A DNA stretch of 42,392 nucleotides from an archaeon (GTDB lineage: Archaea > AGJL01 > Methanococci > Methanococcales > Methanocaldococcaceae). Position 1 is the stretch's first letter. The number at the start of each line of letters is the position of its first letter. Made by a program: the position numbers and the translations under genes. The stretch covers positions 1-42,392 of the forward strand of contig JAJRSC010000018.1 of assembly GCA_024278985.1 (NCBI GenBank). Reading direction: 5' to 3'. Below the pieces are notes generated by a model that saw nothing but the letters and a program-made list of their open reading frames with translations, searched no databases and was not told where the DNA came from. Positions 22,011 through 28,478 of the stretch are shown here, one piece after another.

Positions 22011-22685
22011 TTGAAGCCAAAAGATGCTCTAAGAAAGGATATGTTTGCAGAATTTACATTAAATAAATCCTTTAATACATATAAGGGAAGAATAATAAAA
22101 GTAGATTTTAATGGTCCATTGGAAGGAATAGTAATGAAAAATAAAAAAGACCAAATCTATTTTTATCCTCTTTTAGCTTTACATATGGTTAAACCACATA
22201 ACTGTTATCCTATAAATGTTATTCCAAAAACTTCCTTACCAACAAATCCAAAGAATATTCATATTAAAGAAGCATTATCCAGAATAGTTGGAAGGACTGT
22301 TAAAGTATTTTATAACAATCCAAAAACTGGATATTTAGGTAGATTGTTAGGTTTTACAAGAGGTGTTTTTTCTTGGAGTTTAGTTATGGAAATACATGGA
22401 GAGATATATCTATTTTTTAATCCTGATTATATCGTTTATTATGGTACTGTATGGAAATTTTTAAAAAATAATCCTCCATATGAAAAGCCTAGACTTATGA
22501 ATCTTACTAAGACAGCCAATTTTTTAAATAGATGTTTATTAGAGGATGTAATTATTGAGGAGAATTATCCAAGAATTAATGTAGATAATAGGGTTTATAT
22601 CTATCCTTATGGTGTTGTTGGTGAAGATGGGTACTTAAAGGAGACAATTATTGAGATACTAAAAGAAAAAGAGTTTTTATCCTAA
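22011..22685 (+). CDS. hypothetical protein, possibly with tandem Sm-like folds
   Basis: Long ORF with GGGGA RBS and TTG start; Sm1-like segment LSRIVGRTVKVFY...GYLGRLLGF. Confidence 0.65.
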   Translation: MKPKDALRKDMFAEFTLNKSFNTYKGRIIKVDFNGPLEGIVMKNKKDQIYFYPLLALHMVKPHNCYPINVIPKTSLPTNPKNIHIKEALSRIVGRTVKVFYNNPKTGYLGRLLGFTRGVFSWSLVMEIHGEIYLFFNPDYIVYYGTVWKFLKNNPPYEKPRLMNLTKTANFLNRCLLEDVIIEENYPRINVDNRVYIYPYGVVGEDGYLKETIIEILKEKEFLS

Positions 22686-23996: not shown

Positions 23997-25130
23997 ATGG
24001 ATATAATATCAAATATATTAAAGAATGAAATATTTAAAGCTTTGGGTTGTACTGAGGTCTTATTAATTGGAAAAGCAGCTTTTAAAGCTAAGCCAGAGAA
24101 TATTTGGGATATTGAGGAAATAGTATTAACACTTAGTAAAGATGTATTTAAAAATGCTTATGCTGTTGGTGTTCCCAATACTGGAAAATTTGGGATAATT
24201 CCAGCAATAGTTGGAGGGCTGTTAAGTATAGATGAAAATAAAATTTTTGAAATTGAAAAATATGATGAAGAATTTGAGAAGTATATTAAAGATAAAATAA
24301 AAATTAATGTTGTTAATGGTAAAGTTTATTGTAAGATAACTATTAAAGCAGATAAAATATACACATCTGAACTAAGAGAATACAAAAAAAATAACATTAA
24401 TAAAGAGATTAAAGATGAGTTTAAAAACTTAAATCTAAATAATTTTTTAAAATATATTGAAAATATTCCTAAAGATGTTGAAAATCTTATTAATGAGGTT
24501 ATTGAAATTAATTATTCATTAACTAATCCAAAAGTTCCAGAAGACTTTATAAAAATAGATTTTAAAGATGAAATTTTTAGCTATGTCTTAGAAAAAAGTA
24601 TTTCTGCTATATACAATAGAATGATAGGAATTAATAAGCCAGCCATGGCTATAGCAGGCAGTGGAAATATGGGATTATCAGCAACAGTTCCAATTATTGC
24701 ATATGATGAAATAACCAATAAAGATAGAGATAGATTAATAAAATCTATAACATTATCTGCCTTATCAACAATTTACTCAACATATTACTCTGGATACACC
24801 TCTGCTATGTGTGGCTGTGTAAATAGAGGTGGTTTAGGGGCATTGGTAGGATTATCTTATTATTTAGATAAAGATATTGATACAGTTGTTAAATCTTTCA
24901 CTGCCAACTTACCAGGAATTATTTGTGATGGAGGAAAAGTTGGCTGTGCCTTAAAAATTGCTTCAGGAATATTTTCTATATTTTTATCATTAAATTCAAA
25001 GTGTCCAGGAAATAATGGAATTGTAGGGAAAGATTTTAAATCATGTATAGAAAATATTAATAAAATAGGTATATATATGGACAATGTAGATAATGCTATA
25101 ATTGAAATCTTAAAAAATAAAGAAGAGTGA
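23997..25130 (+). CDS. L-cysteine desulfidase (Fe-S, serine dehydratase alpha-like family)
   Basis: ALGCTE, GSGNMG, SAMCGC, GIICDGGKVGCALK motifs. Confidence 0.85.
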   Translation: MDIISNILKNEIFKALGCTEVLLIGKAAFKAKPENIWDIEEIVLTLSKDVFKNAYAVGVPNTGKFGIIPAIVGGLLSIDENKIFEIEKYDEEFEKYIKDKIKINVVNGKVYCKITIKADKIYTSELREYKKNNINKEIKDEFKNLNLNNFLKYIENIPKDVENLINEVIEINYSLTNPKVPEDFIKIDFKDEIFSYVLEKSISAIYNRMIGINKPAMAIAGSGNMGLSATVPIIAYDEITNKDRDRLIKSITLSALSTIYSTYYSGYTSAMCGCVNRGGLGALVGLSYYLDKDIDTVVKSFTANLPGIICDGGKVGCALKIASGIFSIFLSLNSKCPGNNGIVGKDFKSCIENINKIGIYMDNVDNAIIEILKNKEE

Positions 25131-26383
25131 GAGTTATGTTTGATGAACCAGTTAAAGAAATAATGACAAGAGATGTAGTAACAATAACTCCAGATACTCC
25201 AATATCCAAAGCAATTGGAATAATGGATGAAAATAATTTCCATCACTTAATAGTTGTTGATAAACAGGATGGAAAGGAAGAATACTATTTAGTAACTATG
25301 AGAGATTTATTATTAGCAAGAAATCCAGAGGAAGAAGTTAGGACATTAATGTATAAAGCACACTGTATTGATGAAGATACTCCTGTTTTAGATGCTATCT
25401 GTGAAATGGTTGATAGTGGTCAAAGAGCAGCACCAATAGTTAATAAGTATGGTGTATTAGTAGGAATAGTTACTGATTATGATATTATTTCAAGGGCTGC
25501 AAGAAGTAAGTTGTTAAAAGATGTTGATGTTAAAAAAATAATGTCAAGACCTGTTATAACAATAAATGAAAATGACTCTATTGGTAAGGCAAGGGCATTA
25601 ATGAGGGATAACAACATTGGAAGGTTGGTAGTTGTAGATGATGATGGAAAACCTATAGGAATAGTTACAGAGGAAGATATTTTAAAAAAGGTCTTTAAAC
25701 CAAAACAAAGAATGAAATATGGAGAAGTTAAAGGAGAGAAAGTTCCAAGATTTGGGCAGCCAGTTAAATTAATTATGAGTTCTCCTCTTATAACTATTGA
25801 CCCAGATGCAAGTGTTGCAGAGGCTGCAAGATTGATGAAAGAATACAGTATAAGGGGAATACCTGTTGTTAGAGGAGATAAATTAAGAGGTATTATTACA
25901 AGACATGATATTATTAAGTATCTGGCAGATTTAAAGAAAGGGGCAATGATTGAAGTAGAAATTCATGGAGAGATGGATAAAGATGTTGAAGACTTAGCTA
26001 AAAGAATTATTGCAACTGAAGTTAAAAAAATGGTTAAACATGCTGGAAAAATACACTGGATAAAAATTAACATTAAAAAAGAAAGAGACAAGGGAGTAGT
26101 TCCTTACTATAAAATAACTACCTATGTAAAGACACCTGATAAATTATATGTTGGTGAAGCAAAACCTAAAGGTTCAATTCCAAATAAATTAGAGGCTGAA
26201 GGGGAAGACGTAGGATATGTTTCTGAGCATGTTAGATGGGAATTTATTGATGTATTAAAAGATTCATTAGATTCAGTTTTAAAACAGTTAGAAGCAGACC
26301 ATGATAGAAAAAATCCAAAACATCAAAAGGAAAGAGTAGGAACTTATGAAGAGTTTAATCCTGAAGAGTTTAAAAGAGAATAA
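25127..26383 (+). CDS. 4xCBS-domain protein with C-terminal HPF/RaiA-like domain (candidate ribosome hibernation factor)
   Basis: Four CBS repeats in aa 1-270; aa 274-390 show the beta-alpha-beta-beta-beta-alpha pattern of HPF; ATG 25136 is an alternative start. Confidence 0.75.
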   Translation: MRVMFDEPVKEIMTRDVVTITPDTPISKAIGIMDENNFHHLIVVDKQDGKEEYYLVTMRDLLLARNPEEEVRTLMYKAHCIDEDTPVLDAICEMVDSGQRAAPIVNKYGVLVGIVTDYDIISRAARSKLLKDVDVKKIMSRPVITINENDSIGKARALMRDNNIGRLVVVDDDGKPIGIVTEEDILKKVFKPKQRMKYGEVKGEKVPRFGQPVKLIMSSPLITIDPDASVAEAARLMKEYSIRGIPVVRGDKLRGIITRHDIIKYLADLKKGAMIEVEIHGEMDKDVEDLAKRIIATEVKKMVKHAGKIHWIKINIKKERDKGVVPYYKITTYVKTPDKLYVGEAKPKGSIPNKLEAEGEDVGYVSEHVRWEFIDVLKDSLDSVLKQLEADHDRKNPKHQKERVGTYEEFNPEEFKRE

Positions 26384-26426: not shown

Positions 26427-26861
26427 ATGGAGTTAAAAGTTAAAAAAATTATTAATGGTACTGTTATAGACCATATTTCTCCAGGAAAGGCATTAATTGT
26501 TTTAAAGGCATTAAATATTAAAACTGACAAAACTATAACCATAGCCATTAATGTACCATCAAAAAATAAAGGTAAAAAAGATATATTAAAAATAGAGGAT
26601 GTTTTTTTAGATGAGAATGAAGTCAATAAAATAGCCCTAATCTCTGATGCTACAATAAATATTATTAAAGATGGGAAAGTTGTTAAAAAATTTAAAGCAC
26701 AATTACCCAAAGAAATAGAGGGAATAATTAAATGTACAAATCCAAACTGTATAACCAATATTGAAAAAGTTAAAGGTAAGTTTATAGTTGAAAAAAAAGA
26801 ACCATTAAAAATAAGATGCTACTATTGTGAGAAATTTATTAATAATATTGAATTTGTATGA
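26427..26861 (+). CDS. pyrI: aspartate carbamoyltransferase regulatory chain
   Basis: NGTVIDHI, KKDILKIE, C.NPNCIT...CYYCE Zn site. Confidence 0.96.
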   Translation: MELKVKKIINGTVIDHISPGKALIVLKALNIKTDKTITIAINVPSKNKGKKDILKIEDVFLDENEVNKIALISDATINIIKDGKVVKKFKAQLPKEIEGIIKCTNPNCITNIEKVKGKFIVEKKEPLKIRCYYCEKFINNIEFV

Positions 26862-27790
26862 TTATTATGTTAATGGAAGACATTATTTTTTTATATAATA
26901 ATAAATCAACTTTGGAATTACTATTTTTGGCTAATAAGTATAGCTCTAAAAAAATAAGTTTATGCTCTATTATTAATGCCAAGTGTGGAAAATGTCCTGA
27001 GGACTGTATATATTGTTCTCAATCAATTTATCATAAAACAAACATAAATATTTATCCTTTAAAACCAATAAATGAGATTTTAGAAACTGCTAAAAAGTAT
27101 GATGGTGTTGTAGAAAGATTTAGTATTGTTGTTAGTGGAAAAAAAGTAAATGAAGATGAATTTAACAAAATTTTGGAGGCTATAGAAAAAATTAAAGAAG
27201 AGACAAATTTAAAAATATGCTGTTCTTTAGGACTATTAAATAAAGAGGAATTAAAAGAATTAAAAAAATTAGATGTAAGAATACATAATAACTTAGAGAC
27301 AAATAAGGACTATTTTAAAAATATCTGTTCTACACATTCATATGATGATAAAATAAAGGTTATTAAAACTGCCAAAAAATTGGGTTTAGAGGTTTGTAGT
27401 GGAGGAATTATTAGTTTAGGGGAGAGTTATATAGATAGAATAAAGTTGGCTTTAGAGCTTAGAGAGTTGGGTGTGGATAGTATTCCAATAAATATATTTC
27501 ATCCTATAGAAGGAACTAAGGCATATCAATATCTAAAAACTGGAAAAATAAAGATGTTAGATATTGACGAAATATTAAAAACAATAGCTATTTTTAAAAT
27601 TATTAATCCTAATGCAGAAATAAGATTAGCAGGAGGAAGATTATATTTAGGGGATTATCAAGCATTATCTTTATTAGCTTTAGATGGGTTAATGGTTGGG
27701 GATTATTTAACTACTAAAGGAAGAAAATTAAAAGATGATTTAAAAATGGTTGAAATTTATGAAAAAATACAGAAAAAAAATAGCTATTAA
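26858..27790 (+). CDS. bioB: biotin synthase (radical SAM)
   Basis: CPEDCIYCSQS, CCSLG, HNNLET, CSGGI, IRLAGGR, GDYLTT. Confidence 0.92.
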   Translation: MIIMLMEDIIFLYNNKSTLELLFLANKYSSKKISLCSIINAKCGKCPEDCIYCSQSIYHKTNINIYPLKPINEILETAKKYDGVVERFSIVVSGKKVNEDEFNKILEAIEKIKEETNLKICCSLGLLNKEELKELKKLDVRIHNNLETNKDYFKNICSTHSYDDKIKVIKTAKKLGLEVCSGGIISLGESYIDRIKLALELRELGVDSIPINIFHPIEGTKAYQYLKTGKIKMLDIDEILKTIAIFKIINPNAEIRLAGGRLYLGDYQALSLLALDGLMVGDYLTTKGRKLKDDLKMVEIYEKIQKKNSY

Positions 27791-28478
27791 AGAAAGTATA
27801 ATTAATTTAGTGGTTGATAATCCCAATTACTTTAATTTAGCAGAAGAAATAATATTAAAGTGTAGAGTAGAGATAGAGAGTTATATTATAAAACATCCAG
27901 AATTTTTATATTCATTAGAGCCAATAAATGTGGATGGTTATGGAATTATAAAAGAAATGGCCTTAGCAGGTTTTAAAACAAACACTGTACCAATGGCAGC
28001 AGTTGCAGGGGCAATTGCTGAGTTTGTTGTAAAAAATATCCCTTCAAAGTATGTAGTAGCTGAAAATGGTGGGGATATAGCATTAAAGGGAAAGGAGGTT
28101 TTAATAGGATTATATGCAGGAAAATCTAAGATTTCTGGAGAAATTGCATTTAGAATAAAAGACAAAAAAATTTATGGTGTATGTAGTTCATCAGCTACTT
28201 TTGGACATTCTATAAGTTTTGGTAATGCTGATATAGTTACAGTTTTTGCTAAAAGTCCAACCCTTGCAGATGCTGCTGCTACTGCAATATGTAATGCTAC
28301 TGTTGGAAAAGATAAAGAAGAGATGATAACTAAAGGCTTAGAAAAAGCTGATGATATTGATGGAATTGATGGAGTTTTTATTTCAGTTGATGATTTAGTT
28401 GGAGTTAAGGGTAAAATTCCAGATATTATAAAGGTCAATAAAAAAATCAGTATTAATGATTTATTTGAGGTATATTAA
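27750..28478 (+). CDS. UPF0280 / ApbE-like protein
   Basis: PMAAVAGAIAE, ENGGDI, SS.TFGHSISFG.AD, ADAAATA; start probably ATG 27759. Confidence 0.88.
   Translation: MKFMKKYRKKIAIKESIINLVVDNPNYFNLAEEIILKCRVEIESYIIKHPEFLYSLEPINVDGYGIIKEMALAGFKTNTVPMAAVAGAIAEFVVKNIPSKYVVAENGGDIALKGKEVLIGLYAGKSKISGEIAFRIKDKKIYGVCSSSATFGHSISFGNADIVTVFAKSPTLADAAATAICNATVGKDKEEMITKGLEKADDIDGIDGVFISVDDLVGVKGKIPDIIKVNKKISINDLFEVY

Follow-up and report, generated by a model that had tools for sequence, protein, structure and literature searches.

Locus and assignment

The question raised by this locus is what function is encoded by a gene that carries only the label 'CBS domain-containing protein' in hyperthermophilic methanogens. 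The window analysed here, 42,392 nucleotides (nt) of a Methanocaldococcaceae genome (assembly GCA_024278985.1, contig JAJRSC010000018.1, positions 1 to 42,392 of the forward strand), contains an uninterrupted open reading frame (ORF) at 25127-26383 (+) with no internal stop and 418 amino acids (aa) counted from GTG 25127; residues are numbered throughout in this 418-aa frame. A sequence-only reading of the same DNA, prepared without database searches, had described the encoded protein as a fusion of four CBS repeats with a domain of the bacterial HPF/RaiA type, and had inferred an adenylate-regulated ribosome silencing protein. In the follow-up described below, the gene was assigned, with a probability of about 0.9, as the orthologue in Methanocaldococcus of HibA, a ribosome hibernation factor of archaea that has also been described under the name AHA.

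This family is already in print, first in an October 2025 preprint and then in three papers of 2026 (PMC13324472, PMC13728122, PMC13454478), with bioRxiv 10.64898/2026.01.19.700304 as a further source on archaeal CBS hibernation factors. The sequence-only reading had pointed to recent reports of CBS-containing hibernation factors in archaea, correctly in view of the HibA (PMC13324472), AHA (PMC13728122) and Sri (PMC13454478) papers. Since the central idea has been published, the present result is of use for annotation and brings no new concept: the gene is an experimentally uncharacterised member of the family with a modest clade-specific insert and tail.

Two alignments were used, A1 (28 full-length sequences, i.e. 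the window protein and 27 homologues) and A2 (20 sequences of the C-terminal domain, taken from fetched loci). The gene and its conserved parts are as follows:

25136..26383 (+), coding sequence, HibA/AHA homologue of 415 aa starting at ATG 25136, stop codon TAA at 26381-26383
25151..25318 (+), CBS domain 1 (Pfam CBS)
25358..25495 (+), CBS domain 2, GIVTDYDI, Thr/Asp pair invariant across the subfamily (Pfam CBS, A1)
25529..25693 (+), CBS domain 3, GIVTEEDI, Thr/Asp pair invariant (Pfam CBS, A1)
25694..25753 (+), extended CBS3 loop, aa 190-209, FKPKQRMKYGEVKGEKVPRF, net charge +5 (alignment to the loop of Pyrococcus abyssi HibA in the peptidyl-transferase centre, PTC)
25772..25927 (+), CBS domain 4, GIITRHDI, Thr/Asp pair invariant (Pfam CBS, A1)
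25946..26161 (+), predicted HPF/RaiA-like domain, strand 1-helix 1-strands 2-4, aa 274-345 (AlphaFold2, Foldseek, VIA-align)
26231..26311 (+), predicted last helix of the HPF-like domain, aa 369-395, with R370, W371 and Q387 invariant, and W and ERQ common to P. abyssi HibA

CBS module and homology to HibA

The four CBS repeats of the sequence-only reading were recovered by Pfam (E 9.4e-63), and the protein thus carries the CBS tetrad that forms the N-terminal part of HibA/AHA. The motif G-h-h-T-x-x-D is invariant in CBS2, CBS3 and CBS4 over the 28 sequences of A1, which is consistent with predicted adenine-nucleotide sites; the Thr/Asp logic of these sites was taken from the published description of CBS factors. 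The extended CBS3 loop of HibA/AHA is also present: FKPKQRMKYGEVKGEKVPRF aligns without gaps with IKPRFKAQYGELAGEKIPPF of P. abyssi HibA (common motif KP..YGE..GEK.P.F), and K191, P192, G199, G203 and E204 do not vary among the 28 sequences. When 49 unique subfamily sequences are compared, this loop is the most conserved part of the protein (mean majority-residue frequency 0.83, versus 0.72-0.79 for the other folded parts); in the structure model its predicted local distance difference test (pLDDT) score lies below 50.

The best sequence relative of solved structure was chain 9sr9_H (392 aa, deposited as 'Dehydrogenase'), for which a single collinear alignment (8-304 to 5-302) was obtained at E 9.7e-33. 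When the A1 profile was used, the E value was 7.2e-39 and profile positions 5-337 were aligned to 5-347 of the chain, crossing the domain boundary, and the last helix gave a separate weak match with W and ERQ in common. According to the data availability section of PMC13324472, 9SR9 is 'HibA-ATP', and 9SRA-9SRF together with 9T7H are P. abyssi 70S-HibA complexes; the same paper gives the layout of HibA as a four-CBS module (1-269) followed by an HPF/RaiA-like domain (270-392). Sequence homology to a characterised HibA/AHA member was thereby found over both modules.

CBS tetrads also occur in proteins of other kinds, and the window protein might instead be a generic CBS-tetrad sensor or regulator (HhpR-like, AMPK-gamma-like, or of the stand-alone Sri/ARC type) with a chance resemblance to HPF. 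The CBS module does match a chain of the SriC/SriD complex (9zni_6, E 1.4e-30) and NCBIfam HhpR (E 8.4e-22), and a Foldseek search of the Protein Data Bank (PDB) with the full-length model gave CBS tetrads, including MJ1225 (3kh5, E 5.8e-20) and 9znf_4 (E 1.1e-19), together with AMPK-gamma and no HPF-type match. The alignment to HibA, however, is collinear through both modules, and the Sri, ARC and HhpR proteins, as they have been described, are without an HPF domain. HhpR itself, a CBS-tetrad pressure regulator, was considered as the identity of the protein and rejected: the score of 77.7 bits against its model (NF053603) is far under the curated cut-off of 520.

Fold of the C-terminal domain

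As the matches of the full-length model were confined to CBS tetrads and AMPK-gamma, the C-terminal domain was modelled separately. Two AlphaFold2 models were thus available, one of the full-length protein (28 sequences, mean pLDDT 77.8) and one of aa 270-418 (20 sequences, mean pLDDT 73.6). Both contain a strand at 277-280, a helix at 285-306, strands at 311-319, 327-335 and 340-345, a low-confidence segment at about 350-368 and a helix at 369-395. This is the strand-helix-strand-strand-strand-helix order of HPF/RaiA that had been read from the letters, and the peptide strings then quoted from aa 274 (nt 25946) onwards are all present and coincide with the modelled secondary structure.

The domain model was compared by VIA-align with 48,161 PDB chain representatives. 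Rows 1-16 were all HPF, RaiA/YfiA, plastid pY, mycobacterial MPY or RafH, with Z scores of 9.0-12.6 and 91-107 aligned residues, mostly covering the whole target; the root-mean-square deviation was 2.4-4.2 Å in 15 of these rows and 7.2 Å in the remaining one, a nuclear magnetic resonance model. At row 17 the Z score fell to 6.9, and dsRBD-like and lipoprotein folds came next. The same factors headed the Foldseek search of the domain model, in which RaiA (8rd8_D, E 1.6e-3) was the top match and nearly all rows to about rank 30 were hibernation factors (probability 0.95-1.00). The structural match to HPF/RaiA/PSRP1 for which the sequence-only reading had proposed a search was thus obtained, and the C-terminal domain, as modelled, is of the HPF/RaiA fold that characterises HibA/AHA. 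The HPF-type rows stand 2-6 Z units above all other folds and cover whole targets; together with the collinear alignment, this makes a generic CBS sensor with a fortuitous HPF resemblance highly improbable.

Several results weigh against the assignment to HibA. No Foldseek row of the domain model reached E ≤ 1e-3 (best 1.6e-3), and the fold libraries, which hold PDB entries to 2026-04-08, are without HibA structures. No match at E ≤ 1 to S30AE, the Pfam model for bacterial HPF/RaiA, was found in the protein, nor did phmmer give a match at E ≤ 10 when the C-terminal domain alone was searched against the PDB. The A2 profile retrieved neither HPF nor HibA from the PDB, the rows obtained being RecA-concatemer artefacts (i-Evalue per repeat in the hundreds) and rows of E > 0.3. 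A comparison of A2 with E. coli HPF by hhalign gave a probability of 0.14%, from profiles that are shallow (effective number of sequences, Neff, 1.8), and a feature search of the ESM Atlas with the C-terminal domain gave no usable match. No ribosome- or nucleotide-binding data for any Methanococcales member were found in the literature searched, and two features described below, an insert of some 23 residues and an acidic tail, could alter the binding mode compared with that of solved HibA.

The shallow profiles limit what may be said about membership by sequence and leave the shared fold untouched. In the last ~150 residues Pfam gave nothing significant, with PBECR3 (E 0.23) and LBD_receptor (E 0.29) as sub-threshold noise. 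As the domain was linked to the bacterial HPF/RaiA sequence family neither by a Pfam model nor by a match to a bacterial HPF sequence, the protein was placed under HibA/AHA. When the domain was searched by phmmer against 1.84 billion cluster representatives, just 6 proteins were found at E ≤ 1e-3, all of them close relatives; because so few clusters were retrieved, the C-terminal domain of this clade is well separated in sequence from other HibA lineages. For the AHA protein, homology by HHpred is reported by its authors (PMC13728122).

Insert and C-terminal tail

Two parts set the protein apart from solved HibA:

26162..26230 (+), insert specific to the subfamily, after strand 4 and before the last helix, aa 346-368, KPKGSIPNKLEAEGEDVGYVSEH, of low model confidence and absent in P. 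abyssi HibA
26312..26380 (+), C-terminal tail, aa 396-418, basic NPKHQKER followed by acidic-aromatic EEFNPEEFKRE (A1, locus rows)

An insert of roughly 20 aa before the last helix and a charged tail had been pointed out in the sequence-only reading, and both are real according to the alignment and the locus rows. The spacer from LYVG to RW has 27 residues in 67 of the 74 locus rows and 25, 28, 31, 32 or 36 in the rest, compared with about 3 in P. abyssi HibA, i.e. about 23 extra residues in the subfamily of the window protein. In this count some genes occur twice, having been fetched by two routes, and 5 of the 79 loci gave no row (L040, L049, the bacterial CBS loci L057 and L058, and the E. 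coli locus). When the profile is aligned to P. abyssi HibA, about 22 of its positions have no counterpart in the chain, which runs on without a break at VFIARGETWGAI. The insert is called subfamily-specific by comparison with P. abyssi HibA only, because the listed matches of the A1 profile search (252 proteins at E ≤ 1e-20, of which 120 were listed, all from one close subfamily) gave no other HibA lineage to align. A homologue from Methanophagaceae (L045, 6001-7344) has a longer insert rich in Gly, Ser and His, in which LYVG and RW are 36 residues apart as against 27.

Conservation of the insert differs with the breadth of the sample: it is 0.85 in 17 unique Methanococcales sequences, mostly Methanocaldococcus (folded parts 0.83-0.91), and 0.48 across all 49 unique subfamily sequences, and P347 is the only insert residue invariant across both clades (A1). 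The pLDDT of the insert is below 50 in both AlphaFold2 models. The tail motif EEFNPEEFK(K/R)E is kept in most Methanocaldococcus sequences only.

These data bear on the possibility that the protein derives from HibA and has changed its job in Methanococcales and ANME-1-type archaea, the insert (and in Methanocaldococcus the acidic tail) serving another partner or auto-inhibition, so that it would not be a simple constitutive clamp. The near-constant length of the spacer in the locus rows, so different from P. abyssi HibA, the recurrence of the EEFNPEEF tail in most Methanocaldococcus rows, and a conservation of the insert in Methanococcales that equals that of the folded parts and suggests constraint all speak for such a change. 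The loop predicted to enter the PTC, the core of the HPF domain and the basic segment that follows the last helix are nevertheless all kept and conserved, and the predicted disorder of the insert fits a loop that is ordered by a partner, for which the ribosome is the obvious candidate. A changed job was consequently considered improbable, and the assignment as a HibA orthologue was retained.

For HibA, two archaeal insertions of the HPF domain, between strand 1 and helix 1 and between strand 2 and strand 3, are reported to contact the uS19 tail and uS12/the decoding centre (PMC13324472). From the topology of the fold it is plausible that a third ribosome contact would be made near the sites of these two insertions. 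A wider proposal, which we regard as doubtful, is that the insert (in Methanococcales and in the ANME-1, Syntrophoarchaeum and Methanoliparum-type sequences) forms this third contact at the pole of the two archaeal insertions, that the EEFNPEEF tail of Methanocaldococcus is auto-inhibitory or recruits a partner, and that both together would give a mode of binding and release that is new compared with solved HibA/AHA.

Proposed mechanism and significance

The function of the homologues has been established by cryo-EM on the 70S ribosome, by in vitro translation inhibition, and by deletion phenotypes in T. barophilus and H. volcanii (PMC13324472, PMC13728122). HibA's C-terminal domain occupies the mRNA/tRNA channel of the 30S subunit, its CBS module adopts three positions on the 50S subunit, and in one of these the loop 190-207 (PTC loop) encircles the universally conserved A2834 of the PTC (PMC13324472). 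The independently described AHA of Haloferax volcanii belongs to the same family, with its 'loop 3' in the PTC and two molecules of adenosine monophosphate (AMP) at the CBS3/CBS4 junction (PMC13728122).

By homology, the HPF/RaiA-fold domain of the window protein would sit in the mRNA/tRNA channel of the small subunit and cover the A and P sites, the disc of four CBS domains would dock on the large subunit, and the long basic CBS3 loop would be pushed into the PTC. A single polypeptide would in this way clamp an idle 70S ribosome, stop translation and shield the ribosome under starvation or stress. The CBS3/CBS4 pair probably prefers AMP over the di- and triphosphate (ADP, ATP): for the isolated CBS module of HibA the dissociation constant for AMP was 12 µM (isothermal titration calorimetry), with 65 µM for ADP and 113 µM for ATP (PMC13324472). 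Of the 'adenylate-regulated ribosome silencing protein' proposed from the letters, the hibernation factor was upheld by the homology to HibA and the HPF fold. Control of ribosome binding or release by energy charge is hypothetical for any family member, since neither AMP nor ATP clearly altered the binding of HibA to the ribosome (PMC13324472), despite the binding of AMP, ADP and ATP by P. abyssi HibA and of AMP by H. volcanii AHA.

With this assignment, a gene annotated merely for its CBS domains in hyperthermophilic methanogens would become HibA/AHA, near-universal and single-copy in its class. Genetic systems exist for Methanococcus and Methanocaldococcus. HibA in methanogens would offer a tractable entry to the question of how limitation of H2 or energy is coupled to the shutdown of translation, and would permit testing of a question left by the published work, i.e. 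whether engagement or release is governed by AMP or ATP bound to the CBS module. In the insert and the tail the protein departs from the solved structures in small ways that can be tested.

Start codon

The ORF at 25127-26383 was taken over from the sequence-only reading with its frame, which is correct, and with its start, which is probably not. ATG 25136, rather than GTG 25127, is most likely the true start codon, because an MF or ML start is aligned to residue 4 in 26 of the 27 homologues of A1 (the 27th being N-terminally truncated), the database entry for the same protein (P0002) has 415 aa, and a purine-rich AGAGTGAG lies 5 nt 5' of ATG 25136.

Distribution

The profile of the C-terminal domain was found once in the genome of origin (86% complete, 30 contigs). 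Across 40 genomes of the class, which also constitute the phylum-level set, exactly one full-length match was obtained in 38, in frames of 401-446 aa; among the genomes at least 90% complete a single match was present in 29 of 30. The match is missing from two genomes, one 96% and the other 86% complete. The 24 CBS matches in the genome of origin fall into 11 open frames including the HibA gene, and the C-terminal domain occurs in none of the others. At least 10 further CBS open frames (127-493 aa, e.g. contig C17, 37801-38145) are therefore present in this genome.

The nearest named relative among the matches listed is that of Methanocaldococcus indicus (89% identity over the C-terminal part, 86% over the full length), with other Methanocaldococcus at 70-78%, Methanotorris at about 67-69% and Methanothermococcus at about 60%. 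Next among the matches listed, at 50-56% full-length identity, are many proteins from metagenome-assembled genomes (MAGs) labelled Methanophagales/ANME-1, Methanosarcinales, Syntrophoarchaeum and Methanoliparum. The MAG contigs that carry three subfamily genes (L031, L048 and L008, 54-56% identity) have the labels Desulfobacteria bacterium, Nitrosotalea sp. and Bathyarchaeia. As the sequences closest to these genes are of the ANME-1 type, the labels may stem from mis-binning of the contigs and not from the true hosts.

In the published surveys HibA is present in 47% of archaeal genomes (PMC13324472), AHA homologues number 3160 and are spread over 2723 of 6968 species (PMC13728122), and a SriA-HPF fusion is given for 42% of archaeal species in the Sri paper (PMC13454478). 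Stand-alone Sri/CM-type genes are described as rarely co-occurring with hibA. The main texts of PMC13324472, PMC13728122 and PMC13454478 contain neither 'Methanococc' nor 'Methanocaldococc'; Methanococcales genomes are very probably listed in the supplementary tables of the HibA, AHA and Sri papers.

Gene neighbourhood

The genes next to the HibA gene are as follows:

23997-25130 (+), SDH_alpha-family gene, 377 aa (Pfam E 3.2e-27), directly upstream
26427-26861 (+), pyrI, regulatory chain of aspartate carbamoyltransferase, 43 nt downstream of the HibA gene
26858-27790 (+), radical-SAM/BATS (BioB-like) gene, with a 4-nt overlap with pyrI

The stop codon of the SDH_alpha-family gene overlaps GTG 25127 and ends 5 nt before ATG 25136, for which reason the two genes may be co-transcribed. 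An SDH_alpha-type neighbour upstream was otherwise found only in two loci of the nearest relative (L001/L072). On the downstream side, 15 of 19 Methanococcales loci (L060-L078, with about 1.5 kb of flank each) have pyrI after the HibA gene, and in the ANME-type loci no neighbours in common were found. The neighbourhood was read as synteny of the lineage, and no functional link was seen. Two ORFs of the window, 22011-22685 (+) with 224 aa and 27750-28478 (+) with 242 aa, gave no Pfam match at E ≤ 1e-3. The 242-aa ORF has a relative, 39% identical over 169 aa, in an ANME-1 locus (L020), where it lies downstream of the HibA gene at a distance of about 5.4 kb.

Comparison with known systems

HibA of P. 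abyssi and T. barophilus (Madru et al., Nat Commun 2026, PMC13324472; PDB 9SR9-9SRF, 9T7H) has the same architecture as the window protein, i.e. four CBS domains, a long CBS3 loop and an HPF/RaiA-like domain, and a similar size (392 aa in P. abyssi, 415 aa here). The C-terminal domains of the two are too diverged for a match by domain sequence alone, and in the window protein strand 4 and the last helix are separated by about 23 additional residues and the tail is longer by about 25. AHA (HVO_2384, H. volcanii; Souza et al., EMBO J 2026, PMC13728122; PDB 12DM according to the paper) represents the same 4xCBS-HPF family under another name; neither its sequence nor its structure was among the listed rows of the PDB searches, and it is likened to the window protein from its published description. 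Two AMP molecules are bound at the CBS3/CBS4 junction of AHA, and as CBS3 and CBS4 of the window protein each keep an invariant Thr/Asp pair, AMP would be expected to bind there as well.

Bacterial HPF, RaiA (YfiA) and plastid pY (PSRP1) share the fold of the C-terminal domain (Z 9.0-12.6), and the 30S site that they occupy is also taken by the published archaeal homologues (PMC13324472, PMC13728122). Compared with bacterial HPF, the window protein has in addition the fused CBS tetrad, which by homology would also engage the 50S subunit, a longer last helix, the insert and the tail, whereas a dimerisation domain of the long-HPF type is absent. The archaeal hibernation factors SriA-D (Methanosarcina acetivorans), ARC-P/ARC-A (Methanolobus) and Dri (Pyrobaculum) are CBS tetrads with related CBS modules. 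They are without an HPF domain as described, Sri and ARC binding as pairs and Dri as a double tetrad, and in the aligned Sri chain (9zni_6) the CBS3 loop is 7 residues shorter than that of the window protein.

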